Shown here in pieces: positions 1-14,828 of a DNA stretch of 14,828 nucleotides; positions within the stretch are counted from its first letter, which is position 1, and each line of letters begins with the position of its first letter. Origin of the DNA: Thermoplasmata archaeon (GTDB taxonomy: Archaea > Thermoplasmatota > Thermoplasmata > Lutacidiplasmatales > UBA184); NCBI GenBank assembly GCA_028864975.1, contig JAGWLG010000050.1, positions 1-14,828 of the forward strand, in the 5' to 3' direction. The notes beneath the pieces were generated by a model, which worked only from the letters and a program-made list of their open reading frames with translations, searched no databases and was not told where the DNA came from. The translations under genes and the position numbers were made by a program.

Positions 1-722
1 GCGGAGACCCACGCCACCTCCTTTTCGACGGTACGTGAGGAGAGGCCTCCACGGTAGCACCCGCGACGGAATCCCTCGAGCAGCTTGCGGTTCCGCCGAC
101 GGATGTGGGGAAGGCGCTCCGAGGGTTCGGCCGCCCCGGTCCGACGGGGGAGCGAGGTGATGAGCCCATCCCGCGAGAGGGCCTTCTCGTAGTCCTCCAG
201 GAACGTTCGACGGATCCCGGGCCCGAAGGAGAAGTTGAAGGTGCTGAGGAGACCGTCGTAGGCGATCCTTCCTTCGAACGGGAGGAGCACGCCCTCCACG
301 GCCCTGGGAAGGTAAGGCCCTACCACTTCGTCGAACGGGCTGAGGAGGGGGTGGACGGCGTAGACGCCGCGGTTCTCCTCGTCGCCGCCCAGGAACACCG
401 AGTGGTCCTTCTTGTGCCGCACGATGATGAACTTCCCCTTGACCCGGTGCTTCCAGGAGAGCACCAGCGCGCGGTCCGCCTCCGAGAGGCCATCCCGGTG
501 CGATCCGACGAACCGTTCAAGGAGCTCAGGACGCGACCACAGGAGGTCGCGGACCGGTACGACGTCCTCCATCGGCAAGTACTCTCCATGAAGGAAGTCG
601 ACCGTGGATCGGAGATCCTCCGAACGGCTCACGAACTGGAGCAGAGGCCTCCAGATCGAATAGAACCGGTCGCTTTGCGTTCCAGGGGCGGGAAGGGAGG
701 CTGCGGGCACGAGGAAGGACAT
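1..722 (-). CDS. Conserved hypothetical protein, 3'-partial (runs off the left edge); C-terminal part may be an integrase-N/SAM-like helical domain
   Basis: Hand translation from ATG at 722 (in-frame TAA at 744-746 upstream) gives 240 open codons: MSFLVPAASLPAPGTQSDRFYSIWRPLLQFV...LLWSRPELLERFV...LVLSWKHRVKGKFIIVRHKKDHSVFL...VYAVHPLLSPFDEVV..YLPRAVEGVLLPFEGRIAYDGLL..FNFSFGPGIRR...NRKLLEGFRRGCYRGGLSSRTVEKEVAWVS. Composition is globular and protein-like, unlike the +105..740 mirror ORF. Confidence 0.8.
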   Translation of the reverse strand, partial: MSFLVPAASLPAPGTQSDRFYSIWRPLLQFVSRSEDLRSTVDFLHGEYLPMEDVVPVRDLLWSRPELLERFVGSHRDGLSEADRALVLSWKHRVKGKFIIVRHKKDHSVFLGGDEENRGVYAVHPLLSPFDEVVGPYLPRAVEGVLLPFEGRIAYDGLLSTFNFSFGPGIRRTFLEDYEKALSRDGLITSLPRRTGAAEPSERLPHIRRRNRKLLEGFRRGCYRGGLSSRTVEKEVAWVS

Positions 723-917
723 CAGGGCGAGGGCGAGTAAGGATTACGGGTCCGCTCTGCGAGGTCTCCAACCCATTCCTCTTGGATGGGGCCGGGCCCT
801 TCCCCAGGACCTTCCACCGCCGAGCGAGGGCGAGGGTTTGCCGGACACGGTCGCCGTGACGTTCCCCCGGACGCGTCCGAGGGATTCGACGGAGCCTCGG
901 ATGGCGGGACAGGTCCT

Positions 918-1292
918 TCAGAACCCAGCGCGGACCTTGTGGCGGTCGATCTTGATCCCCGAAGGGGTGATCGCGAGGAGGTTCTTCCCAATCCCCGCCA
1001 CGTCGCCGCCGGTGTCGCGGATGACGTTCTTCAATTCCGCGTTCATCCGGTTCAGGGTCACCTGGTCGTTGGCGATCGACGTGTAGTCCAAGAGGACCAC
1101 GTCCCCGCCGTAGCAGTACTTCGTGATGGTCTGCAGGTCCTCGAACCGGAAGATCTCCGCGCAGCGGATGGTGCTCTTCGCGTTCGCGAGCGCGGCCTGC
1201 TCGTCCTCCCAGTGCATGGCCCCCAGGTCCAGGACCTGGGTCTCTTCCAGCGTCTCGTCGTCGTGCTTCTTGAGGAGGCTGATCTTCGACAT
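918..1292 (-). CDS. sepF: Cell division protein SepF (archaeal type, FtsZ membrane anchor)
   Basis: 124 aa with LDL in the N-terminal region, then IRCAEIFRFEDLQTITKYCYGGDVVLLDYTSI...LKNVIRDTGGDVAGIGKNLLAITPSGIKIDR, which fits the archaeal SepF pattern (G.ivi.D...GGDiag.g...i..TP..vki.R). Confidence 0.85.
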   Translation of the reverse strand: MSKISLLKKHDDETLEETQVLDLGAMHWEDEQAALANAKSTIRCAEIFRFEDLQTITKYCYGGDVVLLDYTSIANDQVTLNRMNAELKNVIRDTGGDVAGIGKNLLAITPSGIKIDRHKVRAGF

Positions 1293-1327
1293 CGGCGGTT
1301 CCCTACCGAGAGCGATTGACGGTGCGG

Positions 1328-1345
1328 TTAAAATACTAACCTTTC
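1328..1345 (-). promoter_or_regulatory. Putative BRE/TATA promoter of sepF overlapping the nmd3 stop codon
   Basis: Minus strand reads CGAAAGGTTAGTATTTTAACC. This AT-rich island (TATTTTAA, 1335-1328) lies 36-43 nt upstream of the sepF ATG, preceded by a BRE-like CGAAA, in otherwise very GC-rich DNA. Confidence 0.55.
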
Positions 1346-2472
1346 GAGTTGCGGCGGTCCTCTCGGCCCCGGCCGCCCCCGTGGGGGGCCCACCAGGCTT
1401 CCTTTTCCCCGAGGACGAGGGGATAGCGCGAGGGCTCCCGGCCTTCCTGGACTCCCTCTTCCGGCGAGGGGGGAGGGGGGAGCACGCCGTGAAGCGGGAG
1501 CGACTCTCCCGAGGTCGGGTCGCGCGCGAACGGTGGCCCCTGCGCGGGAAAGACCAGGGGCAAGGGCTGCCGTCCCCGGGGACCGGAGACCAGACGCATC
1601 CGGGCCACCTCCGCGCGCTCGAGCTTGCGATGCCCGCCCTCCTGCACGTCCACGAGATCGATGGTCCCCTTGCTCCCGACCGAGGAGACCTCCCAGAGAT
1701 GCCCCGCGTCCTCCAGATGGTCGCCCACCGCGACCGGGGGAAGTCGAAGGAGGAAGGTCAGCCGATGCACCTCCCGCCCGTTCTTCATCCCCCACAGCGA
1801 GGCGGTCTCCTTGGCGGAGGCCCCGACACGTTCCTTGAAGGAACGGGCCACCGCGCGGGCGGCGGCTGTGTCGGCGAAGAAGATGTCCCAGCCCTCCTTG
1901 AGCTCCTCCTCCCGGCTCACGGCCTCGCGCTGCTTCTCGGAGCACGCGCGGAGGTGGGCTTGCCAGAGCTCGTAGGCCCAGGACTTGAACTCGCGCAGGT
2001 CGCGAGGCGAACCCTCCTCCGCTGCGCGAAGCTGGATGCGGGCCGTGAAGTAGCGACCCCCTCGACGGCTGCAGTCGGGGCAACTGTGGAGGATGATGTG
2101 CACCTCGGTCCGTGCGGGGACCTCGACCTCCTGCCCCTCGACCTCCACGACGACCTTCGCTTCGACCTCCCGTAGACGGGGATTGTGGCCGCTCACCTCC
2201 CAGGAGACCCGCCGCAAGCGGGCGGGCTGTGTCACCGAGAGGCTGCGCTCAAGGTCCGAGCGGCGGACCTCCTCGGGCCGGTCGGAGCGTACCTTCTCCC
2301 AGTGGTTCCCGACCTGCCGGGACCCGCAGGTCGAACAGAGGACGACATCGATGTACGGAGGCAGGACAACGAGCGGCGTCCGTGCGGTGAAGCAACTCAG
2401 GCAGAGCGCGCCCAGGAACGGAGGTGAGGTGGCCCCGCACTGAACGCAGAACGTTGCGCCTTCCTCTTCCAC
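1336..2472 (-). CDS. nmd3: NMD3 family protein (large ribosomal subunit maturation factor, Zn-binding)
   Basis: Four CxxC pairs (CVQC, CLSC, CSTC, CPDC) and the motifs FC..CG, LC..C, C..CG.....W and CPDCSR..G.YF.A.IQLR typical of NMD3. GTG start with an SD-like motif upstream. Confidence 0.9.
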   Translation of the reverse strand: MEEEGATFCVQCGATSPPFLGALCLSCFTARTPLVVLPPYIDVVLCSTCGSRQVGNHWEKVRSDRPEEVRRSDLERSLSVTQPARLRRVSWEVSGHNPRLREVEAKVVVEVEGQEVEVPARTEVHIILHSCPDCSRRGGRYFTARIQLRAAEEGSPRDLREFKSWAYELWQAHLRACSEKQREAVSREEELKEGWDIFFADTAAARAVARSFKERVGASAKETASLWGMKNGREVHRLTFLLRLPPVAVGDHLEDAGHLWEVSSVGSKGTIDLVDVQEGGHRKLERAEVARMRLVSGPRGRQPLPLVFPAQGPPFARDPTSGESLPLHGVLPPPPSPEEGVQEGREPSRYPLVLGEKEAWWAPHGGGRGREDRRNSKG

Positions 2473-2476
2473 AGGC

Positions 2477-2481
2477 CCTCC
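2477..2481 (-). promoter_or_regulatory. Shine-Dalgarno motif for nmd3
   Basis: Minus strand GGAGG-GCCT-GTG directly before the GTG start at 2472. Confidence 0.5.
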
Positions 2482-2533
2482 GGTGGCGGACGCGATGGTC
2501 GGCGCCCGCGCTCTCAGGACGGAAGGGAGAGGG

Positions 2534-3292
2534 CTACTTGCCCTTCTTGGCCGGAGCGGCGGCCTTCCCGCCCGCCTCGGCCTTCGCGGGCTCGGCCTTC
2601 TTTCCCGCCGCCTCGCCCTTCTTGCCGCCGGCCTCTTCCTTCTCCTTCTTCCCGCCGGCGCCCTCTTCCTTCTTCTCGCCCTCGGCCGCAGCCCCCTCGG
2701 CGGCCGCTCCTTCGACGGGTGCGGCCTCCTCCTTCTTCTTCTCCTCGATGAGGGGCGCGATGGCCGCGTAGCGCGTCTCTTCGACCAGGCCCGCGTGCTC
2801 GATGACCTCGACGCGCGTGGGGGTGGGCAGCTTGCATGCGGCCTTCCTCAGGGCCTCCTTGGCCTCCGGGATGTTCTCGGAACGGCAGGAGAGCGTGATG
2901 AGCGGCTCGTTGATCTGCGCGCGCACGGCGTGGCCCACGGGCTTGCCGAAAGCTCCGCGCATTCCGTCCGAGATACGGTCCGCGCCGGCCCCCGTGGCCA
3001 TCTTGTGTTCGCGCAGGATCGCGTGGGGATAGCGTCGGACCTTGATGTGGAAGTTGTTCGAAGCGGCCTTGTCCATCACCCGGACGATGGAGACCCGGGC
3101 GGCCTCGAGCGCACGGTCCTGGACGTTGCAGGCCTCCTCGGCTCGGAGCGTGAACTGGTACTTGTACCGCTGGTGGGGGTTCCCCGTGTCGAACTGCGTG
3201 ATCCGACAGTGAGGGATGCCTCCCATGTACTCGGTCCGGGTGTAGATCTGTCCCTCGATCTCCCGGTACATCCGGTTCGGCTTGCGGGTCAT
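2534..3292 (-). CDS. rpl10e: 50S ribosomal protein uL16 (L10e) with a C-terminal low-complexity extension
   Basis: RKPNRMYR...YTRTEYMGGIP..RITQFDTG; ALEAAR; YPHAILREHKMATGAGADRISDGMRGAFGKPVG; ALRKAACKLP are diagnostic of archaeal uL16. Confidence 0.97.
   Translation of the reverse strand: MTRKPNRMYREIEGQIYTRTEYMGGIPHCRITQFDTGNPHQRYKYQFTLRAEEACNVQDRALEAARVSIVRVMDKAASNNFHIKVRRYPHAILREHKMATGAGADRISDGMRGAFGKPVGHAVRAQINEPLITLSCRSENIPEAKEALRKAACKLPTPTRVEVIEHAGLVEETRYAAIAPLIEEKKKEEAAPVEGAAAEGAAAEGEKKEEGAGGKKEKEEAGGKKGEAAGKKAEPAKAEAGGKAAAPAKKGK
2537..2746 (-). repeat. Low-complexity K/E/A/G coding tail with short repeats (GAAAE x2, GKK x3)
   Basis: EEKKKEEAAPVEGAAAEGAAAEGEKKEEGAGGKKEKEEAGGKKGEAAGKKAEPAKAEAGGKAAAPAKKGK at the end of uL16. 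Confidence 0.8.
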
Positions 3293-3348
3293 GGGCGAAT
3301 CCCCCAGAGGGGGCCCTTCTTGAGGATTACCTCTCGTTCGAGGGCGCC

Positions 3349-4293
3349 CTAGGGGGGGTGCAGGGTAAGGGGAGCGGCCCCCCGCGAGCCCACGTGCACC
3401 CTCCAGGGCGTGAGGTGCGCCCTGCGGAGCGTGGATAGGAGCCGCATCTCGGCCTCCTCATCGGGGGCCCATGTCAACAGCGTGTTCCCCAGCATCGCTT
3501 GGGCCGCGCGACACCCCTGTTCCCGCAACGACGCGATGACCACCCGCAACGCCGAGGGAGCGAGACCAAGATCATCGGTGAAGCGCTCGAAGACCTGCAG
3601 GGCGTCGTCCCATCGGAGCGGCGGGGAGCCTAGGGTGCGTACCCAGCGCTGCGCGGCCGAGCTCACGCGTTCCAGGAACGCCGGGTCGGAGAGCAGTGGA
3701 GGGGAGGGGAGCGAGGCTCCCGTGGTCGCCAGGAAGAACCCGAGCTGGAACATCGTCCGCTCGATGTGGCCGTGAGGAGGGAGCCCGGCGGTCCTGCGGA
3801 CCTCCAGCCCCCCGCCAAGGATGGCGGGGACCCCGCCTAGGCCTCCGTGCAGCTCGATCTCCGCCCGGTGGGCCGCGGCGTGGGCCGCCTCTGGGGGAAG
3901 CCCCATCGCGGTCGCGGCGGCGAGCGCAGACGCGAGGGAGCCCGCCGCGCTCATGCTTAGCCCTTGGGCGATGGGGAGCTCGTGCACCAGTTCCACCCGG
4001 ACAAGGTGGTCCTTGGCCCCGGGAAGGTTCGCCACGGCCCGCTCGGTGATCGGCAGGGAGGCGGGGCGCCCTCGGTCGGAGACCTCGACCCGGCCGGTCC
4101 CGGGGGCGACCGGCCACACGTGGGCACGCGCCCTTGCCCCCAGATCTAGTACGACACCTGCCCCAAGGGATCCCCGAGCGAGGGGGTCCGAGGGGGCGAG
4201 CACCGGTTCGAAGATCCCGGTGACGTGGCCAGGGGCGAAGGCGGCGGCCCACGAGCCCGATGGAGGGACCGGTGGGGGCATCCGCCTGTTCAA
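3349..4293 (-). CDS. pok: Pantoate kinase-like GHMP kinase (archaeal CoA biosynthesis); ATG at 4281 is an alternative start to TTG 4293
   Basis: AFAPGHVTGIF..V, GSLGAGV.L, GHMP ATP loop LPIAQGLSMSAAGSL, AH.AE...GGLG, GGGLEVR..AG.P and AQAMLGNTL match the PoK family. The usual GLGDV reads GLGGV here. Confidence 0.8.
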   Translation of the reverse strand: MNRRMPPPVPPSGSWAAAFAPGHVTGIFEPVLAPSDPLARGSLGAGVVLDLGARARAHVWPVAPGTGRVEVSDRGRPASLPITERAVANLPGAKDHLVRVELVHELPIAQGLSMSAAGSLASALAAATAMGLPPEAAHAAAHRAEIELHGGLGGVPAILGGGLEVRRTAGLPPHGHIERTMFQLGFFLATTGASLPSPPLLSDPAFLERVSSAAQRWVRTLGSPPLRWDDALQVFERFTDDLGLAPSALRVVIASLREQGCRAAQAMLGNTLLTWAPDEEAEMRLLSTLRRAHLTPWRVHVGSRGAAPLTLHPP

Positions 4294-4410
4294 GAGCCAT
4301 CCCTAAAGAAGAACCGGCGTGCCGACGGCCCTAGCCGGGAAGCGCCGTGGGGGACCGATCGGAAAGCTGGGCACCCGAGTTGAGGACACGCTGAAATATT
4401 TCTAAACCGC

Positions 4411-4417
4411 TTTATAA
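4411..4417 (+). promoter_or_regulatory. TATA box of the pan promoter
   Basis: TTTATAA within the AT-rich stretch AAATATTTCTAAACCGCTTTATAAC, 65-71 nt upstream of the pan ATG, in a divergent intergenic region. Confidence 0.7.
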
Positions 4418-4481
4418 CGCGGGGGCTCTTCTATCGTCAGTAGGTTGTCCGACCGGCAGCCGAAGGGGAAACCGTTCTTCC

Positions 4482-5690
4482 ATGGCCGAGAATGAAGCGG
4501 CTCCCTCCGGCCGCGAGGAGACCTACGACCGGCTGAACTTCCTAGAGCTTCGGAACAACCAGCTCGCGGAAGCGATCAAGCGCGTCGAGAGCGAGCGCCA
4601 CTACATGGAGGCGGAGATCCTCCGCCTGCAGCGTGAGGTCAAGCGGCTCAAGACCGAGCTGGACCGCCTGCGCTATCCTCCGCTCATCGTCGGGACCGTC
4701 CGCGACGTGCTGACGGACGGACGGCTCGTCGTGAAGAGCTCGACGGGACCCGACTTCGTCGTGAACGCGGCGGAGACCGTCGAGCACGAGAAGATCTCGG
4801 TGGGGAGCCGCGTCGCGCTCAACAAGCAGACCCTGGCGGTGATGGGGGTCCTTCCGGCTTCCCTCGATCCCCTGGTGACCGCGAGCGAGATCGTTTCGCG
4901 TCCTGGGATCTCCTACGAGGACATCGGTGGACTTGGCGACCAGATCCGGGAGATCCGCGAGGCCGTGGAGTACCCGCTCCTGCGCGGCGAGCTCTACCGT
5001 AAAGTCGGGGTCGAGCCTCCGAAGGGGGTCCTGCTGATCGGGCCCCCCGGAACGGGGAAGACCATGATCGCGAAGGCGGTCGCCCACCACACTCATGCCA
5101 CGTTCATCCGGCTCGTGGGGAGCGAGCTGGTCCAGAAGTACATCGGCGAGGGAGCGCGCCTGGTCCGCGAGCTCTTCCAGTTGGCCCGCGAGAAGGCCCC
5201 GACGATCATCTTCATCGACGAGATCGACTCCATCGGCGCGAAGCGCCTGGAGGTCGCGACCTCGGGGGACCGCGAGGTCCAGAGGACCTTGATGCAGCTC
5301 CTCGCTGAGATGGATGGGTTCGAGCCCCTCTCCAATGTCAAGATCACCGCGGCGACGAACCGCCCCGACATCCTCGACGAGGCGCTGCTGCGCCCCGGCC
5401 GGTTCGACCGGATCGTGGAGATCCCGGTCCCCTCGTTCCAGGGGCGCGTCGAGATCTTCAAGATCCATTCCCGTGGGATGAGCCTGAAGGACGCCATCGA
5501 CTGGGAGGCGCTCGCCGCCCGGTGCGACGGGTCGACCGGCGCCGACATCAAGTCGATATGCACGGAGGCCGGGATGTGGGCCATCCGGGAGGAGCGCGAC
5601 GCGGTCAACATGTCGGACTTCGAGCGCGCCATCGAGAAGGTCATCGGCGAGGAAGACACCGGTAAAGAGACCGTCGGCATGTTCGCCTGA
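4482..5690 (+). CDS. pan: Proteasome-activating nucleotidase (AAA+ ATPase PAN)
   Basis: N-terminal coiled coil, OB domain (PPLIVGTV...VVKSSTGP.FVV), Walker A GPPGTGKT, pore loop ELVQKYIGEG, Walker B IIFIDEID, SRH AATNRPDILDEALLRPGRFDR, C-terminal GMFA. Confidence 0.97.
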   Translation: MAENEAAPSGREETYDRLNFLELRNNQLAEAIKRVESERHYMEAEILRLQREVKRLKTELDRLRYPPLIVGTVRDVLTDGRLVVKSSTGPDFVVNAAETVEHEKISVGSRVALNKQTLAVMGVLPASLDPLVTASEIVSRPGISYEDIGGLGDQIREIREAVEYPLLRGELYRKVGVEPPKGVLLIGPPGTGKTMIAKAVAHHTHATFIRLVGSELVQKYIGEGARLVRELFQLAREKAPTIIFIDEIDSIGAKRLEVATSGDREVQRTLMQLLAEMDGFEPLSNVKITAATNRPDILDEALLRPGRFDRIVEIPVPSFQGRVEIFKIHSRGMSLKDAIDWEALAARCDGSTGADIKSICTEAGMWAIREERDAVNMSDFERAIEKVIGEEDTGKETVGMFA

Positions 5691-5749
5691 GGTGGACGGT
5701 ACTTCCGCCGTTCCTCCGCGGGCGTCGAGCGCGGCTCGGGTCGCGGTCG

Positions 5750-6796
5750 CTACGGGCGCGAAGGCGCTCCGAGCATCCGGTCGTACCGGTGGTTGACGGG
5801 CGTCACGAGCCCGGTGAGGGGGGTCCGGAAGACCTCGATCCCCTTCAGGAAGGACTCCAGCGTCGCGGAGACCGAGGCCCGGGGGACTCCCGGCTTCTCG
5901 GGCGCGGGACCCGCGGCGGCGAGAGAGCCTAGCAGGAGTCGCCGTCCATCGCACGCGAACAGGAAAGGGCTCAACCGGCAGCCGTCGACCAGCGCGTGGA
6001 GGAGCGCGAGAGGCTCGCTCTTGGGGAGAAGCTCGCCCTGGACGAAGGCCAGGTTCTCGACCTTCCATCCCCCCATCTGAAGGAGCTTCTGCGGGTCGAG
6101 GAACACCCGCCGCTGGACCCATCCGCGCTCCATCGCTCTGCGCTGCGAACGGGGGACGAAGAAAGGGGCCGCATGCACCGCGCTCCGCCCCTGCGCCTCG
6201 AGCTCGAAGGGGCGACGCACGAGCCCAGCGAGCGTGGAGCGGGCGCCGGGTGAGATCTGCGCCGCTTCGTCACCTTCGGATCTCACGCTCGACCTCCATC
6301 CGTGAGGGTAGGCGAGGGACCCGGTCAGTCCAGCCCAACGCCCCCAGGACCCCTCGAAGTCGAAGTAGACCGGGAGCCCTGAACTGCGGCTATCGACGGT
6401 GAGGGCTGAGTGCCTGCGGAGCGCGCTGACGTCCGAAACCTCCTGGACTCCCGGGACCCTGACGTTCGTCTCTGAGGTCGCCAGGACCACGAAGACGTAC
6501 TGGGGACCCTTCCAGAAGTGCACCACGCGGGGGTCGGCGCCCCACGACTCGATCACGGCGCTGAAGCGCTCGACGAACGGCTCGCCGAGGACGAACGTCA
6601 GGAACGGACGCGAGACCATGACGGGGTCGGGCAGGTAACGGTCGACGATCCATCCCTCCTCGTAGGCCCTCGACCGGATGCCTCGGAAGGTGCGGGGGGG
6701 GATGCCGGACTCCTGGATCCGCTCCCGCTCCGAGGAGGGAAGGGCGGCCAGCATGGCCCGCACCACCGACGCCTCCCCCGCGGTGAGGTTGCGCAA
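5750..6796 (-). CDS. Putative transcriptional regulator, Lrp/AsnC-like winged HTH with internal duplication (paralog 1); start revised to TTG 6796 (ORF track extends to ATG 6868)
   Basis: LTAGEASVVRAML...S.RERIQESGIPPRTFRGIRSRAYEEGWIVDRYLPDP resembles the Lrp/AsnC N-terminus (LD..D..IL..L.....S..ELA..vGlS..TV..RikrLee.GvI.gy.a.iDp). A second GWV.RRVFLDP motif occurs mid-protein. Aligns along its full length with 11708..12748. Confidence 0.7.
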   Translation of the reverse strand: MRNLTAGEASVVRAMLAALPSSERERIQESGIPPRTFRGIRSRAYEEGWIVDRYLPDPVMVSRPFLTFVLGEPFVERFSAVIESWGADPRVVHFWKGPQYVFVVLATSETNVRVPGVQEVSDVSALRRHSALTVDSRSSGLPVYFDFEGSWGRWAGLTGSLAYPHGWRSSVRSEGDEAAQISPGARSTLAGLVRRPFELEAQGRSAVHAAPFFVPRSQRRAMERGWVQRRVFLDPQKLLQMGGWKVENLAFVQGELLPKSEPLALLHALVDGCRLSPFLFACDGRRLLLGSLAAAGPAPEKPGVPRASVSATLESFLKGIEVFRTPLTGLVTPVNHRYDRMLGAPSRP

Positions 6797-6897
6797 GCCC
6801 GGGGACCCCCCTGAGAGAACGTAGCACGTGCGGCCACGTTTCGAGGTTCCCGAAGCCGCCCCGTTCATGTAGTTCGCGGTCCCCCTGGACCGTCACC
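6797..6897. promoter_or_regulatory. Divergent control region of cassette 1: conserved block A (6821-6834), central palindrome (6838-6856), conserved block B with TATA-like TTCATGTA (6855-6882)
   Basis: Ungapped alignment to 12761-12832 at offset 5950: block A 11/14 and block B 24/28 identical. Palindrome GTTTCG-N7-CGAAGC is centred on 6847. Confidence 0.7.
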
Positions 6898-9800
6898 ATG
6901 ACCCCAGGAGCGGGCCCCTGGCTTCCTGCCTCACGCGTGAACGATCTCCGAAGGCGAACCCTTGGGAGGCTGTTGCTGGTCGGGGTTTGGGCCGCGGTGC
7001 TACTCATGCTGCTGCCCAGCGGGGCGTCACCCCACGCGGCGCTCTCCTCATCTCCCCCCGGTGAACCTACCGAGGTGGTCGGGACACGTGAGGTCGCCTC
7101 TTCCCTCGCCTCGGTCGGAACGACCTGGACCCAGCTGTGCCCGTCGTGCGGGCCCTCGCCTCGAGGGGACTCGGCGGAGACCTACGACCCCGCGCTTGGG
7201 TACACCCTCCTCTTCGGCGGGGGGGATGCCTCGAGTGTCCGCCTAGGGGACACCTGGAAGTTCGAGAACGGGAACTGGACGCTGCTGCACCCCGTGACCT
7301 CCCCCACGGCTCGTCAGGGTGCCGAGATGGTCTACGACCCCACGGACCACGAGGTGGTGCTGTTCGGTGGCCTGGACAACTCCCGGAACGTTCTGAACGA
7401 CACCTGGGTTTTCGTCGGCGGGAACTGGACAGCGCTCTCCACGCCCCATGCCCCCGCCCCGCGCTACGACACGGCGATGGTGTGGGATGCCTCCGACGGC
7501 TATGTCCTGCTCTTTGGCGGCTGCCAGGTCGGTTGCGCGTCGACCTTTGGCGACACCTGGAAGTTCCTCGGGGGGGGCTGGACCCAGCTCACTCCGACCA
7601 CGTCGCCCTCGACCCGGGGATGGGTCCCGATGACGTTCGACACGGCGGACGGCGATGTCGTGATCTTTGGCGGGTGCGCCCCGAGCTACGTTTCGCTCGC
7701 CGACACCTGGACCTACCACGCGGGGCTCTGGACCCAGATCTACCCCTCCGCACGCCCCGCGGCACGTTGTGGCGGGCTGAACATGGTCTTCGACGCGTCG
7801 CTCGGGTACGCGATGATGTTCGGCGGCTCGGACAACGGCACGATCCTCCTTGACACTTGGTCGTGGGCCTCGGGAGCGTGGACCCAGCTCTCTCCTGCGG
7901 TCTCCCCCGCGGGCGGTCCTCTTCTTGCGGATGACCCCGCGCAGGCGGGCGTCATGGGCTTCGGTGGGACCATCGGGTGCAACAACTGTGTCGACAACAA
8001 CACTTGGCTCTACCACGATACCGTACCGACCCCGCTCGGCATCTCCTCCTTCTCCGCGTCAAGTTCGGGGGTCGCACTAGGCCAAAGCGTAACCTTCTCG
8101 GTCGTCGCGAAGGGGGGCACCCCTCCCTACACCTTCGCCTACGCCGGGCTCCCGAAGGGATGCTCGTCGGCGAACACCGCCTTGCTCAGTTGCGCGCCAG
8201 CGGCCCCCGGGACCTCGACGACGCGCGTCTACGTGAACGACACGGCGTCGGGCACGGTCTCCGCAACGACCACCCTCGACGTGTACGCCCCGATCTTCCG
8301 CAACTGGACCGAGATCTGTGCGACCTGCGGACCCCTGCCCCGGGGCGACGACCCGATCGCCTACGACCCCATCGACGGCTACACCCTGCTCTTCGCCGGT
8401 GGCACGTCGGTGTCCAACCTCTACAACGACACCTGGATGTTCAGGAACGGCCTCTGGAACCAGCTCCACCCCTCGAGGGCCCCGGTCCCGATGCAGGGGC
8501 CCGACCTGGTCTGGGACCCGGTGGACCATGAGTTCGTCCTCTTCGGAGGCCTGGATACCGGCAGGGTCACCCACAACGAGACGTGGGTCTTCTCCCCGAC
8601 CACCCTGGACTGGACCGAGCTCTCGACCCCTCACGCCCCCGTGCCTCGATACGACGGGAGCATGGTCTGGGACACCTCGGATGGATACGCCCTGCTCTTC
8701 GGAGGGTGCCTGGTCACCTGCAAGCCTACCCTCGGCGACACGTGGACGTTCGTCGGAGGGACCTGGACCGAACTTTCGCCGGCGACCGCTCCGTCCTCTC
8801 GGGGGTGGGCCCCGATGTCCTACGACTCTGCCGACAACGAGGTCGTGCTCTTCGGGGGAGCGGCCCCGAACTACGTGCCACTGGGCGACACGTGGACCTT
8901 CCACGCTGGGAGCTGGACCCAGATCTTCCCCGCCCTCTCCCCTTCGCCCCGCTTCAACGGCATCCAGGGGTTCAACGACGACCCCGCTGTCGGATATGCG
9001 GTCATGTATGGGGGCGGGAACGACACGACCAGCTTCCCTCAGACGTGGGCGTTCCGAGGGGGGAGCTGGACCCCGTTCACCACAGCGGTCTCCCCGGGCC
9101 TGAACGGTGACATGGGGAGCGTCTACGATGCGTCGGCGGGGGGCATGATCATCTTCGGGGGTGGGAGCCCCATCGACAATGCCACCTGGATCTTCGGGCC
9201 GTGGGTCGCCCCGCTCGGCATCCAGCAGTTCGTGGCGAGTCCCGCGGTAATCCCCCTCGGAGGGTCCACGACCCTGACCGTCCAGGCGGTCGGAGGCACA
9301 GCGCCCTATCACTACGCGTACAGCGGTCTCCCGGCGGGCTGCACGAGCACCAATGTCGCCAGCCTCCCATGCTCCCCCTCCGCGGTCGGCACCTACAGCG
9401 TTGATGTGTGGGTCAATGACTCGGCCTCCGGAAAGGTCTCGTCCACGACGAGCTTCACGGTCTACCAACCGATCTTCCACAACTGGACGGAGATCTGCGC
9501 GGCCTGCGGGCCCTCCCCTCGCGGCGACGCCCCGCTCGCCTACGACCCTGTGGATGGCTACACCCTGCTCTTCGGTGGGGGGTCGGGCCCCTCCTACGGC
9601 CCGCGGCTCAATGACACCTGGATGTTCCATAACGGGGTATGGACGCAGCTCCACCCGGCCCACACTCCCGTCGGGCTCCAGGGAGCGGACCTGGTCTGGG
9701 ACCCGACCGACCACGAGTTTGTCCTGTTCGGGGGGCTCGACGGCAATCGGATCACCCACAACGAGACCTGGGCCTTCTCCCCAGTCACCCAGGACTGGAC

Positions 9801-11694
9801 GGAGCTCTCGACCCCACACGCGCCCGCGACACGGTACGACGGGAGCATGGTCTGGGACGCGGCCGATGGCTACGTCCTCCTCTTCGGGGGATGCTACGTC
9901 ACCTGCAAGTCCGTCTTGGGCGACACCTGGAAGTTCCTGGGGGGGACATGGACAGAGCTTACCCCCGCGAGCGTCCCTTCGGCCCGTGGTTGGGCGCCGC
10001 TGACCTACGATTCGGCGGACAGCGAGGTCGTCCTCTTCGGAGGAGCGGCGCCCAACTATGCCGCGCTTGGCGACACCTGGCTGTTCAAGGGCGGGACCTG
10101 GACGGAGATCTTCCCATCCACCTCTCCTGCGGCGCGCTGGAACGGGCTTCAGGGCTTCAGCGACGACCCCGCGCTGGGCTACGCGGTCATGTACGGCGGC
10201 ACCACGGGGGCGGTCAGCCTCTCGGACTCTTGGGCGTTCAAGGCGGGGACCTGGACGCAGGTCACCACCGCGACGAACGCCGGCACGAACGGGGACATGG
10301 GCATGACCTACGACGCGTCGGCCGGTGGGGTCATCATGTTCGGGAACGGTCAACCGGGAACGATCGACAACTCGACCTGGATCTACGGCCCCTGGAGCCC
10401 TCCACCCCTCTCCGTCTCCCTGACCGCGGCCCCGAGCCCGACCGACTCAGGGTCCCCGGTCGACCTCACCGCGACCTCGAGCGGAGGGGCGGGCTCCATA
10501 TCCTACGCGTTCGCCTTCGGCGACGGGAGCCTCGCCTCCGGGATGGGCCCAAAGGTGAACCACACCTATGCTCGGGCCGGGACTTACGTCGCCACAGTCT
10601 GGGCGAACGACTCGGTCTCACAATCCGCTTCCGCTCAGGCCTCGGTGGTCATCCTCCCCCCAATGGTGGTCTCGCTCCAGGCGAGCCCGAACCCCGCGGT
10701 GCTTGGAAGCCCGGTCGCTTTCACCTCCACGGTGAGCGGCGGCCTGGGACCCTACACCTACGCCTGGAACTTCGGGGATGGAGGGCTGGGCGGCAACCTC
10801 GCGAACATCACGCACATCTTTGCCACCAACGGGCCCTTCACGGTGGTCCTCTCCGTCCGGGACGCGAACGGGATCACCGCGTATGGCTCGCTGCAGATCT
10901 CGATCCTCCTGCAGGTCGACATGTCCGCGAACGTCACGCTCGGGGCGACCCCTCTGGTCACGGCGTTCACGAGCTCGGTCACGGGTGGGGTGGGACCCTA
11001 CGCCTACGCGTGGGTGTTCGGCGACGGTGGGACGAGCAACGTAGCCTCCCCGACCCACACCTACACGGTCGCGGGGAGCTACTCTGCGAAGCTGACGGTC
11101 ACCGACGCGGCCGACCACACGGCGGTGCGCACCTGGAACCTGACCGCGTTCTCGGGTGGAGGGCCTCTTCAGGTCGCCTTGAACGCGAATCCCAGCCAGT
11201 TCTATCTTGGGAACTCGACCCTGATCTCCGCCGCCATCACCGGCGGACATGGCGGGTACGTCGTCAGCTGGTCCACGCTCCCTACCTGGTGCTCGGCCTC
11301 AGGGCTGACCTCGCTCTCCTGCAAGCCGACGGTCACCGGGAGCTACACCTTTGAGCTCACGGTTACGGATGCGGCCGGTTCGACACAGACAGGCTCGGTC
11401 ACCATCCATGTCCTGGGGCCGAACCAGAAGACCACGAGCCCGACGGGGCCCTTCGGGCTCCCGGCGACGCTCGGCTGGACCGTGGTCGTCCTCCTGGTGG
11501 TCGCGGCGTTGGCGATCATCCTCGCGGTCACCTACGAGGCACGCCGCCGCTCCCGACGGGTGCCGCCCCCTCCTGCTCCCATTTCCGGGGTCGGTGCGTG
11601 GGCTCCCCCCTCACCCGCCGGCCCCACGGCTCCTGGAGAGCGCAAGCCCATACCCCCTTCGGGGGAAGGGGACCATCTGAGGGACCTGTTCTGA
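6898..11694 (+). CDS. Large membrane-anchored surface protein (1598 aa): signal peptide, 3 six-bladed Kelch-type propellers separated by Ig-like domains, 3 PKD domains, Ig-like domain, TM helix, Pro-rich cytoplasmic tail
   Basis: Blade motif P.PR...m.yD..dgy.llFGG......DTW.f..g.Wt repeats 18 times. PKD signatures y.w.FGDG....HtY...G.Y at 10408-11151. Hydrophobic WTVVVLLVVAALAIILAVTY followed by RRRSRR. Confidence 0.92.
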   Translation: MTPGAGPWLPASRVNDLRRRTLGRLLLVGVWAAVLLMLLPSGASPHAALSSSPPGEPTEVVGTREVASSLASVGTTWTQLCPSCGPSPRGDSAETYDPALGYTLLFGGGDASSVRLGDTWKFENGNWTLLHPVTSPTARQGAEMVYDPTDHEVVLFGGLDNSRNVLNDTWVFVGGNWTALSTPHAPAPRYDTAMVWDASDGYVLLFGGCQVGCASTFGDTWKFLGGGWTQLTPTTSPSTRGWVPMTFDTADGDVVIFGGCAPSYVSLADTWTYHAGLWTQIYPSARPAARCGGLNMVFDASLGYAMMFGGSDNGTILLDTWSWASGAWTQLSPAVSPAGGPLLADDPAQAGVMGFGGTIGCNNCVDNNTWLYHDTVPTPLGISSFSASSSGVALGQSVTFSVVAKGGTPPYTFAYAGLPKGCSSANTALLSCAPAAPGTSTTRVYVNDTASGTVSATTTLDVYAPIFRNWTEICATCGPLPRGDDPIAYDPIDGYTLLFAGGTSVSNLYNDTWMFRNGLWNQLHPSRAPVPMQGPDLVWDPVDHEFVLFGGLDTGRVTHNETWVFSPTTLDWTELSTPHAPVPRYDGSMVWDTSDGYALLFGGCLVTCKPTLGDTWTFVGGTWTELSPATAPSSRGWAPMSYDSADNEVVLFGGAAPNYVPLGDTWTFHAGSWTQIFPALSPSPRFNGIQGFNDDPAVGYAVMYGGGNDTTSFPQTWAFRGGSWTPFTTAVSPGLNGDMGSVYDASAGGMIIFGGGSPIDNATWIFGPWVAPLGIQQFVASPAVIPLGGSTTLTVQAVGGTAPYHYAYSGLPAGCTSTNVASLPCSPSAVGTYSVDVWVNDSASGKVSSTTSFTVYQPIFHNWTEICAACGPSPRGDAPLAYDPVDGYTLLFGGGSGPSYGPRLNDTWMFHNGVWTQLHPAHTPVGLQGADLVWDPTDHEFVLFGGLDGNRITHNETWAFSPVTQDWTELSTPHAPATRYDGSMVWDAADGYVLLFGGCYVTCKSVLGDTWKFLGGTWTELTPASVPSARGWAPLTYDSADSEVVLFGGAAPNYAALGDTWLFKGGTWTEIFPSTSPAARWNGLQGFSDDPALGYAVMYGGTTGAVSLSDSWAFKAGTWTQVTTATNAGTNGDMGMTYDASAGGVIMFGNGQPGTIDNSTWIYGPWSPPPLSVSLTAAPSPTDSGSPVDLTATSSGGAGSISYAFAFGDGSLASGMGPKVNHTYARAGTYVATVWANDSVSQSASAQASVVILPPMVVSLQASPNPAVLGSPVAFTSTVSGGLGPYTYAWNFGDGGLGGNLANITHIFATNGPFTVVLSVRDANGITAYGSLQISILLQVDMSANVTLGATPLVTAFTSSVTGGVGPYAYAWVFGDGGTSNVASPTHTYTVAGSYSAKLTVTDAADHTAVRTWNLTAFSGGGPLQVALNANPSQFYLGNSTLISAAITGGHGGYVVSWSTLPTWCSASGLTSLSCKPTVTGSYTFELTVTDAAGSTQTGSVTIHVLGPNQKTTSPTGPFGLPATLGWTVVVLLVVAALAIILAVTYEARRRSRRVPPPPAPISGVGAWAPPSPAGPTAPGERKPIPPSGEGDHLRDLF
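7126..10386 (+). repeat. Intragenic tandem repeat of a propeller+Ig module, period 1179 nt (393 codons)
   Basis: Equivalent Trp codons at 7126, 8305 and 9484; RGD codons at 7162, 8341 and 9520; Ig-like domains at 8032-8286 and 9211-9465. Confidence 0.9.
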
Positions 11695-11707
11695 GAGGCG
11701 CGGGCGC

Positions 11708-12748
11708 CTACGAACGGACCAATCGGTCGTAGCGGTGGTTCACGGGAGCCCTGAGCGAGGTCAGCGGGACGCGGGTAACCTCGATGCCTTCCAGGTAGTT
11801 CCCCAAGGTTGCCGACACCGATGTGCGCGGCGCGGAGCTTGAGACGGTGGAAGGCGGGAGCGGGGAGACCGCGCCGAGGATCAGGCTCGTCCCGTCGGAC
11901 GCGTACAGGTAGGGGGTCACGAGGCAGCGCGTGACCAGCTCCTCGAGGAGGCGGTCCGGGAGCGAGCCTCGCAGCATCCTACCATGGATGAAGACCAGGT
12001 TTTCGATACGAGGGGCTTGAAGAGCAGAGAGGTGCACGGGGTCGAGGAAGACACGTCGGTGGACCCAGCCTTGCTCCAGGGCCCGGACCTGCGAACGCGG
12101 GAGGAAGAAGGGTGCGTTGAGGTTGGGAGGCCGTCCGGAGCTTTCCACCTCGAAGGGCCGGTTGACGAGCCCAGCGACCGAGACCCTAGCAGGAGCTGAT
12201 GGAAGCCGAGGGGCCGTTGCCCCGGGTTCGCGAGGGACCGAGGTCCAGCCATGGGGGTAGGCGAGGCTTCCCTGAAGCCCAACCGCTCGACTCCAAGCGG
12301 CTTCGAAATCGAAGTAGATCGGGAGCTGAGCAGCACGCGTGTCGAGGGTTAGAGCGAATTGCCGTCGGAGCGCCCTCCCGTCCGAGACATCGCGGATGCC
12401 CGGCAGAGAGGGCTTGGGCGAGCTTCCGAGCCTGACCGCCAGCAGGCCCTGCGGAGAGGTCCAGAGGAGGACGATACGGGGGTCGGCTGACCAGGTCTCC
12501 AGAACTGCGCTGGCGTGCTCGACGAAGGGTTCGGCCAGAATCAGAGTGACAAAGGGGAGCTCGAGGAGGCCGGGCTGCGGTAGATACCGGTCCACGATCC
12601 ACCCCTCCGAGAGAACCCGACCCCGGACGTCGGTGAAAGTTCGGGGAGGGATTCCACTGCCTCGGATCCGGTCCCGCTCAGGCAGGTCCTCGCACGCGAG
12701 TAGCGAGCGGACCACCGCCGCCTCGGCCGGGGTCACGCCTCGGGACAC
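11708..12748 (-). CDS. Putative transcriptional regulator, Lrp/AsnC-like winged HTH with internal duplication (paralog 2)
   Basis: GTG start. Roughly half of the residues match paralog 1 by eye, including SGIPPRTF, EGWIVDRYLP, EPFVE, ADPR, YFDFE, GSLAYPHGW, PFF.PRSQ, GWV.RRVFLDP, SVSATL, GIEV and PVNHRYDR. Confidence 0.75.
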   Translation of the reverse strand: MSRGVTPAEAAVVRSLLACEDLPERDRIRGSGIPPRTFTDVRGRVLSEGWIVDRYLPQPGLLELPFVTLILAEPFVEHASAVLETWSADPRIVLLWTSPQGLLAVRLGSSPKPSLPGIRDVSDGRALRRQFALTLDTRAAQLPIYFDFEAAWSRAVGLQGSLAYPHGWTSVPREPGATAPRLPSAPARVSVAGLVNRPFEVESSGRPPNLNAPFFLPRSQVRALEQGWVHRRVFLDPVHLSALQAPRIENLVFIHGRMLRGSLPDRLLEELVTRCLVTPYLYASDGTSLILGAVSPLPPSTVSSSAPRTSVSATLGNYLEGIEVTRVPLTSLRAPVNHRYDRLVRS

Positions 12749-12846
12749 CGGGTCACGCCCCTGTCAAACTGTAGCATTCGCGGCACCGCGTACAGTGAGC
12801 GTACGCCGACCCGTTCTTGTAGTTCACGGACCGACTCCCTCCCGCC
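12749..12846. promoter_or_regulatory. Divergent control region of cassette 2: block A (12771-12784), perfect palindrome GCGTAC-N7-GTACGC (12788-12806), block B with TATA-like TTCTTGTA (12805-12832)
   Basis: Homologous in position and sequence to 6797-6897; read directly from the sequence. Confidence 0.7.
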
Positions 12847-14828
12847 ATGTCCCGCGGAAACCACAACTCTGCGCCGAGCTACAGCGCGAACCGACGCTTT
12901 TGGATGAGGACCCGATCGAGCCTGATCCTGGTTGCCGCAATCACGCTCCTCGTCGCCCTTCCCCAACCCGGACTGGGGGCACGCCCAGGTACTCAAGCGT
13001 CTCCTCACGCAAGCTCGGCAGGCGGGCTTGCTCCTACTTGGAAGCAGTTCTCGAGCCCAGCGAACGTCTCAGCTTCGGATGCGGGCGGTGGCTACCTGGT
13101 CTGGGACCAGGCCGAGCATCTGGACACCTACTGGGACCCGAACTCGGCTTCGAACCATCTCTACTACTTCTACGCTGGCAATAGCACATGGCGAGTCGGC
13201 CCTGAGATGCGTAACATGTCGAGCCGACTTGGGGCCAACGAGTGGATCATCGGTGCAGCGTACAATTGGCAAGACGGAGTCATCGATGTGACCGTTCAGG
13301 CCCAGGGAACTTGCGCGCCTTCGGGCTACGTGTGCTTCTTCACCTACGCGCACGGGAACATGACCCGGATTGGGTCGTTCGCGCAGGGCAGCTGTTACGG
13401 CCTTTCGGCCTGGGACCCAATGGATCACTACGTATGGTGGATCTCAACCGGCGGAAATGGCGACACTTACGCAATCATCAACAACACGGTAACCCAGCTC
13501 TCGGCACCGGCTCCGGCTTCGAACTGCAACACGGGGAACGCTGTTTGGGACCCAGTGCATGGCTACCTTGTCCTTGCCCTCGGAACCAGCTACGGGTTCT
13601 CCACATTCGTTGGAGGCACTTACTCGGCCATGTCGTCGCCCTATGGCTGCAATGATCCCATCTTGGCTTTCGACCCAGACCCGTCCATTGATACGGTCGT
13701 CTCCTACGGCTGCTACACCGGCGGAGTGGACTCCGACGAGTACACCTGGGGGGGTACGAGCTGGAGTAACATGGGGGTGCCCTCTGCAACTCCGCCCTCT
13801 ACCGACTCGGGGAGTTTGGGAGGGTTCGACCCCATTCTCGGCCGGGAGCTTATCGTCACGGGAACCTACTCTGCCGGTGCGGACGGGCTCTGGTCGCCTG
13901 GGGTCGGGATTGCGCCGGGCCCGCTGATGGTCAGCGCTTCGGGGTCCCCCCTGAGCGGACGCGCTCCGCTCACGGTATCACTTGCCTCCACACCGTCGGG
14001 GGGAAGTGGTACCTACTCGACCTTCTCCTGGCACCTTGGGGACGGAAACGTGGCTGCCACGCAGACCCTCGTACACACTTACTCCTCTGCGGGCACCTAC
14101 TATGCGTGGGCCAATGTGACCGACTCTCTCGGATCCACCGCCATGAGCAACGTCTTGGTAATCACCGTATCCCCACCGCCTCCACTCTCCACGAATGCCT
14201 CGGTTTCCCCGCGGAGTGGCCCCCTCGGAACGAACTTCCAGTTCTCCTCGGTAACCACGGGAGGCAGCGGGACGTACACGTGGAGCTGGAGGTTCGGTGA
14301 TGGTAGCTTCTCGATCTTGTCTGCACCGTCACACGCTTACGCGCGTGTTGGATCATACACCGCCAGGCTCTGGGCAAACGACACCACCGGGGCGAGCGCC
14401 ACAGGATCGGTCTCCGTTCAGGTCTACCAGCCCATCTTCGGCAATTGGACGGAGATCTGTTCGTCATGCGGTCCGGAACCTCGTGGGGACGCGGCTATGG
14501 CCTTCGACCCGGTCGATGGCTATACGGTCATGTTCGGTGGAACTCCCGGGTTGCCTACGTTCTACAACGACACCTGGGCGCTTTCGAGTGGGGTCTGGTC
14601 GAAACTCCAGCCCGCGGTTTCCCCAAGCGCACGCCAGGGCGCTGTGATGGCGTTCGATCCCACGGACGGCTACCTCGTCCTCTTCGGCGGATTCGATGGG
14701 AGCGTGCTGTTGAACGACACCTGGACGTACTCTGCGGGATCTTGGACGAATCTTCACCTCTCCCACTCTGCCTCCCCCCGGTACGACGCGAGCATGGTGT
14801 GGGACGCCAAGGACGGCTACCTCCTTCT
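12847..14828 (+). CDS. Second large secreted surface protein, 3'-partial: signal peptide, divergent N-terminal propeller, 2 PKD domains, then a Kelch-type propeller like those of 6898..11694
   Basis: Hand translation from ATG 12847 (in-frame TAG at 12820-12822 upstream) is open to the window end, 660 codons: MSRGNHNSAPSYSANRRFWMRTRSSLILVAAITLLVALPQPGLGA...WDPMDHYVW...WDPVHGYLVL...FSWHLGDG...HTYSSAGTY...WRFGDG...HAYARVGSY...VYQPIFGNWTEICSSCGPEPRGDAAMAFDPVDGYTVMFGG...NDTW. It is absent from the ORF track because it has no stop in the window. Confidence 0.92.
   Translation, partial: MSRGNHNSAPSYSANRRFWMRTRSSLILVAAITLLVALPQPGLGARPGTQASPHASSAGGLAPTWKQFSSPANVSASDAGGGYLVWDQAEHLDTYWDPNSASNHLYYFYAGNSTWRVGPEMRNMSSRLGANEWIIGAAYNWQDGVIDVTVQAQGTCAPSGYVCFFTYAHGNMTRIGSFAQGSCYGLSAWDPMDHYVWWISTGGNGDTYAIINNTVTQLSAPAPASNCNTGNAVWDPVHGYLVLALGTSYGFSTFVGGTYSAMSSPYGCNDPILAFDPDPSIDTVVSYGCYTGGVDSDEYTWGGTSWSNMGVPSATPPSTDSGSLGGFDPILGRELIVTGTYSAGADGLWSPGVGIAPGPLMVSASGSPLSGRAPLTVSLASTPSGGSGTYSTFSWHLGDGNVAATQTLVHTYSSAGTYYAWANVTDSLGSTAMSNVLVITVSPPPPLSTNASVSPRSGPLGTNFQFSSVTTGGSGTYTWSWRFGDGSFSILSAPSHAYARVGSYTARLWANDTTGASATGSVSVQVYQPIFGNWTEICSSCGPEPRGDAAMAFDPVDGYTVMFGGTPGLPTFYNDTWALSSGVWSKLQPAVSPSARQGAVMAFDPTDGYLVLFGGFDGSVLLNDTWTYSAGSWTNLHLSHSASPRYDASMVWDAKDGYLL

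Follow-up and report, generated by a model that had tools for sequence, protein, structure and literature searches.

Putative single-chain Lrp/AsnC-like pseudo-dimers encoded beside surface-protein genes in Thermoplasmata archaea

Regulators of the Lrp/AsnC family (feast/famine regulatory proteins, FFRP), such as Pyrococcus FL11/PH1519 (2cyy, 1ri7, 2e1c) and PH0140, are monomers of about 150 amino acids (aa; about 15 kDa) which form dimers and multiples of dimers, and their sequence-specific DNA binding is tuned by a small effector that lodges between RAM domains. Here we describe two paralogous genes found in a stretch of 14,828 nucleotides of a Thermoplasmata archaeon (assembly GCA_028864975.1, contig JAGWLG010000050.1, positions 1 to 14,828; hereafter the window). 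We consider it probable, at roughly 0.6, that each of them encodes a cytoplasmic, basic, single-chain pseudo-dimer of the Lrp/AsnC type, which would act as a putative local regulator of the adjacent surface-protein gene. The resemblance to the classical proteins lies in the N-half, which aligns to the winged helix-turn-helix (wHTH), hinge strand and RAM domain of PH1519, and in the gene order: many archaeal Lrp genes adjoin their probable targets (PMC2995911), and here they do so divergently. The differences are considerable. The protein of the first gene has 348 aa, with two units per chain, and carries extra invariant motifs after each RAM-like core. The Pfam models HTH_24, HTH_AsnC and AsnC_trans_reg all miss the family: the first two matched none of 137 members at E<=0.01 and neither window protein at E<=10, and AsnC_trans_reg (PF01037) was found in six other genes of the same genome and in none of its seven regulator paralogs.

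Chains holding two such units have been described before. NirDL and the fused AhbA-AhbB proteins are, in the excerpts of the literature available, single chains with two units of a helix-turn-helix (HTH) and a ferredoxin-like domain derived from the Lrp/AsnC family. There they are presented as enzymes that make haem or haem d1 and whose catalytic residues sit on strand beta2; in contrast, the window family has no sequence match to them, lies in another gene context and has many paralogs. The corresponding Pfam model, AsnC_trans_reg2 (PF17805), matched neither the window proteins (E<=10) nor any of the 137 family members scanned (E<=0.01).

A closer relative is encoded in the same genome, at C54:42208-43224(-) (L107:1208-2224). 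This cousin is a tandem Lrp/AsnC protein of 338 aa that matches HTH_AsnC at 1.7e-9; its N-half matches E. coli AsnC (1.4e-4), its C-half matches PH0140 (1.6e-3) and two other AsnC-type chains, and its relatives are named Lrp/AsnC by NCBI and JGI. Together with bacterial clusters of 300-357 aa in the ESM Atlas, the cousin shares with the window family its length and the order of two HTH-RAM units. Profile comparison of the family with the cousin gave a probability of 80.6% and E 1.3e-5, collinear from residues 7-228 of the window protein P0006 to residues 4-198 of the cousin, that is, from the first HTH to the recognition helix of the second. Unlike the window family, in which only the N-half does so and at profile level, the cousin has both halves matching solved Lrp/AsnC chains and a Pfam HTH; it also has other neighbouring genes and no YFDFE block, the PVYFDFE segment falling in a gap of the alignment. 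Over the whole length, the nearest entries to the Atlas model of the window protein were Thermoplasmatota clusters of 326-376 aa, which are automatic clusters compared by structure only, and the first of them could be the one to which the protein itself belongs.

Literature searches for tandem, double or fused Lrp/AsnC regulators, or for the window family, returned no paper on them and did return papers on siroheme decarboxylases. Since single-chain tandem Lrp proteins already exist (the cousin, the bacterial Atlas clusters, NirDL and AhbA-AhbB), we regard the family as a new, strongly diverged variant of them. What is new in it are the added invariant motifs, the confinement to one family of Thermoplasmata and the fixed pairing with tail-bearing surface proteins.

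Architecture of the regulator proteins

Regulator gene 1 (P0006) occupies positions 5750..6796 of the minus strand and encodes 348 aa; its assignment as a single-chain tandem Lrp/AsnC-like protein is based on the open reading frame (ORF), the start, the gene call and homology. In the ORF listing it can be extended to 5750..6868(-), 372 aa, and both the family alignment and the public gene call place the start at ATG 6796 (MRNLT), which gives 348 aa. Its paralog, regulator gene 2, lies at 11708..12748(-) with 346 aa from GTG 12748, or 342 aa from the database start at ATG 12736. The two genes had been proposed in the initial annotation of the window and are real, with coordinates that agree with the family alignment and the database gene call. 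The proteins are identical at 180 of 342 positions (53%, E 3e-125, BLASTP) and came out as sisters with a support of 100 (Shimodaira-Hasegawa-like approximate likelihood ratio test) in a quick maximum-likelihood tree of 59 regulators. The protein of gene 1 is basic, with 43 K+R versus 34 D+E.

By comparison of profiles, the N-half is a detectable Lrp/AsnC unit. A profile of 150 family sequences searched against the PDB found PH1519/FL11 (2cyy) at E 6.2e-6, model positions 6-140 aligning to chain residues 7-147 of 151, followed by 1ri7 (9e-6), 7fby (0.006) and PH0140 (0.008). The same half aligned to 10 canonical Lrp proteins from this and related genomes with a probability of 93.3% and E 2.7e-7 (hhalign), so that the N-terminal wHTH within an Lrp-type unit, as first proposed, holds. 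No useful PDB match was obtained with P0002 in phmmer or with a profile of nine sequences; the AsnC-type winged HTH at the N-terminus is found at profile level only.

The predicted wHTH-1 (6617..6787(-), residues 4-60) aligned to the HTH of PH1519/FL11 and of the local Lrp proteins; its putative recognition helix 3 is IPPRTFRGIRSRAYEE and its wing GWIVDRYLPDP, and residues T36, R43, R53 and P56 are conserved in at least 90% of the 150-sequence alignment. It is followed by a RAM-1-like domain (6377..6616(-), residues 61-140), which the profile alignment covers up to chain residue 147 of 151 in PH1519. Compared alone with the local Lrp proteins, RAM-1 gave no significant result (hhalign), and for this reason its assignment depends on the match of the whole unit to PH1519.

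The second half was compared with the first by hhalign. Residues 2-74 of the N-half profile aligned to 5-83 of the C-half profile with a probability of 91.8%, E 7.3e-7 and a score of 45.0, to be read against a maximum of 16.3 in 60 column shuffles and 11.4 for the reversed profile. The C-half is therefore read, from its profile, as opening with the wHTH and first strand of the N-half in diverged form. A hidden Markov model (HMM) of the C-half recovered the N-terminal HTH in 43 of 44 regulators of other genomes, 34 of them at E<=0.01, although this is the same signal as in the hhalign test and not an independent one. The repeated motifs on which the idea of a double protein had first been based, EGWIVDRYLP[DQ]P and, about 177 residues later, [RQ]GWV[QH]RRVFLDP with ENL.F..G, are both present in the translations.

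Between the halves runs a variable linker (6242..6295(-), residues 168-185), which has the lowest conservation and insertions or deletions among members. The putative wHTH-2 (6083..6241(-), residues 186-238) was placed by the internal repeat and by alignment to the second HTH of the cousin; its helix 3 is VPRSQRRAMERGW, its wing VQRRVFLDP, and its R230 is 98% conserved. The initial annotation had supposed that this second HTH has degenerated, and here our results disagree with it. Among the seven paralogs of the genome the mean pairwise identity of helix 3 was 0.57 in HTH-2 (LPRSQRR...) versus 0.38 in HTH-1, and the variability within HTH-2 was confined to the region of helix 2. Being more conserved among paralogs than its counterpart, HTH-2 is under selection, diverged and not decaying. 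On the other hand, the difference noted between the putative HTH-1 recognition helices of the two window proteins (PPRTFRGIRSR vs PPRTFTDVRGR) was confirmed in the translations, and the value of 0.38 extends it to all seven.

A further feature of the family is a set of conserved positions outside the Lrp core. In the 150-sequence alignment D146, P164 and P277 are invariant, and conservation of at least 90% was also found for P73, W95, P142, F145, E148, W151, Y163, R230, G254, L269, F278, L279, H336 and Y338, besides the four residues of wHTH-1 named above. The top-conserved residues of the family are P142, Y144, F145, D146, E148, W151, Y163, P164, P277, F278, L279, H336, R337 and Y338, and the conservation of the motifs they form is, on the alignment, far beyond chance. 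Core 1 (6296..6376(-), residues 141-167, LPVYFDFEGSWGRWAGLTGSLAYPHGW) starts past the end of the PH1519 match and is an insertion with respect to the cousin. Core 2, VNHRYDRM (5774..5797(-), residues 334-341), contains H336 (96%), R337 (87%) and Y338 (93%). These segments had been singled out as strongly conserved non-Lrp motifs, LP.YFDFE..W.R..GL.GSLAYPHGW (residues 141-167) and PVNHRYDR (residues 333-340); both are present and rank among the most conserved positions of the family. In a global hhalign alignment of low confidence, YFDFE of the N-half stands opposite HRYDR of the C-half. Considering this, and that core 1 begins where the PH1519 match ends, both motifs would come after the final core strand of the half to which they belong. 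Strand beta5, which takes this position in canonical Lrp, helps to build higher oligomers (PMC2995911).

The remaining segment, a RAM-2-like region (5798..6082(-), residues 239-333), shows by eye a beta-alpha-beta-beta-alpha-beta pattern with nearly invariant P277-F278-L279, and its fold is taken from the ESM Atlas model only. This model, of the exact protein of gene 1, has a predicted TM-score (pTM) of 0.72 and a mean predicted local distance difference test score (pLDDT) of 0.66. It was closest to the 326-376-aa clusters mentioned above, with TM-scores of 0.69-0.79; five of the seven contain TrmB, MarR or HTH_24, and the two nearest have no common Pfam family. Against the bacterial 300-357-aa proteins with HTH_AsnC and AsnC_trans_reg the TM-score was 0.60-0.63. 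The C-half of the model reached 0.50-0.52 with ACT domains and with a cluster of double HTH_AsnC; the best score in an Atlas feature search with this half was 0.77, under the level deemed meaningful.

Family distribution and neighbouring surface-protein genes

An exhaustive HMM search of 1.84 billion representatives retrieved 400 proteins at E<=1e-3, of which 378 were at or below 1e-10 and 304 at or below 1e-30. The family comprises 400 clusters at 50% identity; the 150 sequences listed of the 400 have 277-434 aa and match end to end, and of 10 clusters whose names were looked up two were called 'hypothetical protein' and the others had no name. When 201 genomes of the class were searched with the profile, the family turned up in all 23 other genomes of the window's own GTDB family, to which UBA184 belongs, a tally which includes one genome marked unpublished (G106), and in none of the 177 genomes from 29 other GTDB families. 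There is one copy in most genomes, 8-10 in one genus and seven in the window's own genome (G000; 3.6 Mb, 89.6% complete). No split or single-unit relatives of 30-160 aa were found by a word-index search of limited sensitivity. Three family copies contain an in-frame stop (L021:6001-7011, G054:C4:5754-6764 and G174:C2:26017-27039; one TAG, one TGA and one of unspecified type) and may be pseudogenes or sequencing errors. As for the window itself, its G+C content is 66-70% in every 1-kb bin save the last (62%), and its archaeal genes include those of NMD3 and a PAN-type proteasomal ATPase.

Each window regulator is divergent from a giant Kelch/PKD surface-protein gene across about 100 bp. Target 1 (6898..11694(+)) encodes, according to Pfam and the analysis of its termini, a surface protein of 1598 aa with a signal or transmembrane N-terminus, Kelch propellers, PKD domains, a C-terminal transmembrane helix and a cytoplasmic tail ending GDHLRDLF. 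Target 2 (12847..14826(+)) is a Kelch/PKD surface protein by Pfam, cut by the end of the window. In the whole genome, all seven regulator paralogs adjoin a surface-protein gene: for five of them the divergent gene encodes a PKD or Kelch/PKD protein; for the sixth it encodes a protein of 506 aa, which shows a signal peptide, an ectodomain with many sequons and a transmembrane anchor; and the seventh is divergent from a 132-aa transmembrane protein and lies upstream of a sedolisin-PKD protein.

In other genomes we examined 57 loci obtained from a motif-seeded scan with one genome per species, whose titles were Thermoplasmata archaeon in 56 cases and Methanobacteriota in one; two came from UBA184. 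A homolog of the 506-aa protein was divergently upstream in 36 of the 57, and PKD or propeller proteins were divergent in five, upstream and co-directional in four and downstream in two. When the type of neighbour was mapped on the regulator tree, five changes were required, whereas 200 shuffles needed 20.7 on average and never fewer than 17; in this count the PKD gene of L026 was taken as co-directional, and L029 was left out, its upstream side being at a contig end. The tree had 59 rows: L021 (with its in-frame stop), L051, L056 and L062 (partial or uncalled) and L064 were excluded, and L043 was entered by its match coordinates. Since kin share labels, this result speaks for stable cassettes and not for co-evolution.

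About 100 separate regions of the genome match the Kelch/PKD proteins of the window (tblastn, E<=1e-10), unusually many for an archaeal genome of 3.6 Mb. With so many of them, adjacency to a Kelch/PKD gene is by itself weak evidence; the general association was rejected as an argument, and counts of immediate neighbours were used.

The protein of about 500 aa (C115:32275-33795(+); homologs e.g. L061:4415-5896:-) has no Pfam match and shows a signal peptide, an ectodomain rich in N-x-S/T, a Cys pair ahead of the transmembrane helix and a conserved tail. We take it as the ancestral partner of the regulator; in these archaea, which lack a wall, it may be the chief glycoprotein of the surface.

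The neighbours share a C-terminus consisting of a transmembrane helix, a basic stop-transfer stretch and a Pro-rich cytoplasmic tail with the end ...[DE]DPLx[NHD]L[WF]. The end reads ...DPLx[NH]LW in the 500-aa family, whose Pro-rich tail also holds PPxYPNAxLYPPG, and GDHLRDLF in target 1 (window 11500-11694). The strict form of the tail pattern occurs in four ORFs genome-wide, three of which adjoin a regulator, and the loose form in seven: four beside regulators, two at contig ends and one orphan. In stretches of three other genomes the loose pattern was present in 9 of 27 adjacent genes versus 0 of 113 non-adjacent ones, and the strict pattern in 3 of 27 versus 0 of 113. These counts are partly circular, as the patterns were defined after seeing the tails of the neighbours and the loose one was widened after seeing the three genomes. 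The only clear bearer of the motif in the genome without an adjacent regulator is a protein of 519 aa (C97:15115-16674(-)), which ends QQDPLGHLY.

The divergent control regions measure 101 bp between regulator 1 and target 1 (6797..6897) and 98 bp in the second cassette (12749..12846). A GTGCTA half-site is kept in both, about 25-31 nt from the regulator start, and region 1 contains, at this distance, GTAGCAC, which it has in common with the other cassettes. A box TGGAC-N4-TGCTA-N5-T(A/C)GCA is conserved in 24 cassettes of the 500-aa type (SP500), while the flanking DNA is not; the 24 were taken from 36 loci of this type plus the copy of the window's own genome, and a locus qualified if its regulator start had been called and no less than 230 nt of upstream sequence was present. 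The box falls about 20-50 nt ahead of the regulator. Twenty of the 24 contain TGCTA, 19 with it at -34/-32 relative to the start and one at -43. The second half of the box keeps at least four of five bases in 12 of the 24, and the palindrome is perfect in four. The 3.6-Mb genome has a single copy of the perfect form, TGCTA-N5-TAGCA, which falls within the control region of a further paralog, C72a (C72:50046-50060). The conserved box may serve as an operator, as a promoter element or in both roles, and together with the unique palindrome it is indirect support for sequence-specific DNA binding. On the side of the target gene, a TATA-like element (TTTATGA/TTTAAGA) is located about 27-33 nt ahead of the ATG.

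Weighing of the possible functions

Several results weigh against reading these proteins as tandem Lrp/AsnC regulators of their neighbours. Neither window protein matched any family of Pfam or of NCBIfam at E<=10, and just one of the 137 members matched any Pfam family at E<=0.01 (TrmB, 5.8e-4). With the C-half the evidence is mostly negative: its profile of 44 sequences gave a flavin mononucleotide (FMN) reductase at E 0.13 as the best PDB match, it reached a probability of 2% with the 10 canonical Lrp proteins and E 0.083 with the cousin family (in both cases with the best alignment in the expected register), and RAM-1 against RAM-2 scored 9.5, at noise level, where shuffles reached 14.8. 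RAM-2 against Lrp was also at noise level. Because these comparisons were negative, we infer the second RAM domain from the by-eye pattern and the Atlas model, and that domain and the pseudo-dimer packing are drawn from one model with a mean pLDDT of 0.66. The fused double Lrp/AsnC protein put forward in the initial annotation largely holds: the Lrp unit in the N-half and the duplicated wHTH stand, and the family is collinear with a tandem Lrp protein, but the second RAM domain is left without support from sequence. As for the DNA, the fixed distance of the box to the start codon means that it may be a promoter element and not an operator, and the symmetry of the palindrome suits a pair of identical HTHs better than a pair of unlike ones. 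Six of the 57 loci have the PKD gene co-directional and not divergent, and in about 10 the neighbour could not be named or was lost at a contig end. Among public RNA runs, none was listed that holds the window stretch.

It could also be that the protein works chiefly with the neighbouring surface protein and not with DNA, that is, a cytoplasmic adaptor or anchoring factor on the conserved tail ...DPLxxLW-COOH, in which the HTHs would be retained as structural domains, as in AhbA/B. The tail motif is rare and concentrated beside regulators (3 of 4 ORFs with the strict pattern, and 9/27 versus 0/113 with the loose one), the tail and the non-Lrp core of the regulator are both invariant across paralogs, and proteins with the Lrp fold that are not regulators exist, as told in the accessible part of PMC4145669. 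However, the shared tail may reflect only the common descent of the anchor module of the targets, and its pattern was partly drawn from the same neighbours. The gene order, divergent and non-operonic, is the one described as typical of local regulators in the portion of PMC2995911 at hand; helix 3 of HTH-1 retains T36 and R43 and varies between paralogs as a specificity helix does; the control regions hold a conserved box and the protein is basic. Taking all this together, we find a pure adaptor unlikely. Less likely still is a DNA-binding role that is global or architectural, as in E. coli Lrp, without specificity for its cassette. Proteins of the Lrp type can be global and oligomerise on DNA (PMC2995911, in the same portion), and every genome sampled from the taxonomic family has one copy of the core ortholog, but along the tree the regulators keep their synteny with one type of neighbour, regulator and target genes expand jointly, and the perfect palindrome is unique in the genome.

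It is very improbable, in our view, that the family belongs with the siroheme decarboxylases (fused AhbA-AhbB or NirDL), the known double proteins of Lrp fold on one chain in archaea, as an enzyme or a tetrapyrrole-binding protein. The likeness comes from the domain order, since fused AhbAB and NirDL have twice an HTH with a ferredoxin-like unit in one chain and are homologous to PH1519, as far as the excerpts of PMC4835899 and PMC4145669 describe them; from the residues His98, Tyr100 and Arg102 reported for AhbB in such excerpts, whose HxYxR spacing is that of HRYDR in the family; and from the genome, which at 89.6% completeness has no PF17805 match of its own. Yet the axial His of the enzyme is placed by the available text on ferredoxin strand beta2, which by eye corresponds here to V.PFLF, while HRYDR comes after the last strand. 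The PDB profile search gave Lrp regulators and no chain of 4CZC, 4CZD or 4UN1 at E<=10, and 7-10 paralogs per genome, each by a surface-protein gene, are unlike a housekeeping enzyme. A haem cluster is found at C95:38507-44101, with genes for a ChdC/HemQ-type protein, UroD and ferrochelatase, which point to the coproporphyrin-dependent route. As this route is present in the genome, a siroheme decarboxylase is not needed, and the candidate role as the missing siroheme decarboxylase was rejected on the basis of this cluster.

Proposed mechanism and meaning

Under the favoured explanation, of a single-chain Lrp/AsnC pseudo-dimer that regulates its neighbour, the chain would be ordered as wHTH-1 and RAM-1, the conserved strand and loop PVYFDFEGAW...YP, the variable linker, wHTH-2 and the RAM-2-like domain, and the C-terminal HRYDR strand. 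The two RAM-like halves would pack as the two subunits of an Lrp dimer do, and for that reason one chain would present two non-identical HTHs. The regulator would bind the divergent control region of about 100 bp and control the adjacent surface-protein gene, probably together with its own promoter. Helix 3 of HTH-1, variable among paralogs, would give specificity for the cassette, and helix 3 of HTH-2 (LPRSQRR), invariant among them, would make the same contact in every cassette. As for the two extra motifs, at the position of strand beta5 after the RAM core, their role is most likely to close the pseudo-dimer, to offer a surface for assembly or for an effector, or both. The pair in the window would have arisen by duplication of the whole cassette of regulator and target.

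A more speculative extension, which we hold as doubtful, is that each regulator is matched one-to-one with its neighbour for signalling across the membrane, a kind of pairing that has not been described from archaea. The surface protein would consist of a large propeller/PKD or glycoprotein ectodomain, one transmembrane helix and the Pro-rich tail ending ...DPLx[NHD]L[WF]-COOH, and this tail would fit into the invariant non-Lrp core (YFDFE..YP / HRYDR) or into the pocket of the RAM pseudo-dimer, where its terminal hydrophobic residue and carboxylate would imitate the amino acids that classical Lrp binds as effectors. Depending on its state or abundance, the surface protein would sequester or free the regulator and so set the transcription of its own gene, and the paralog-specific HTH-1 would keep each cassette private.

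With these results, a family known publicly only as 'hypothetical protein' gains a name and a testable mechanism. It is tied to genes of large surface proteins, and no other gene class is as expanded and variable in these uncultured archaea of acid soil and mine water. It also shows how far tandem Lrp proteins can diverge, with a second unit that is unrecognisable by sequence and yet conserved, and with new invariant motifs added. Docking of the tail on the regulator, if true, would represent a new kind of link between cell surface and transcription in archaea.

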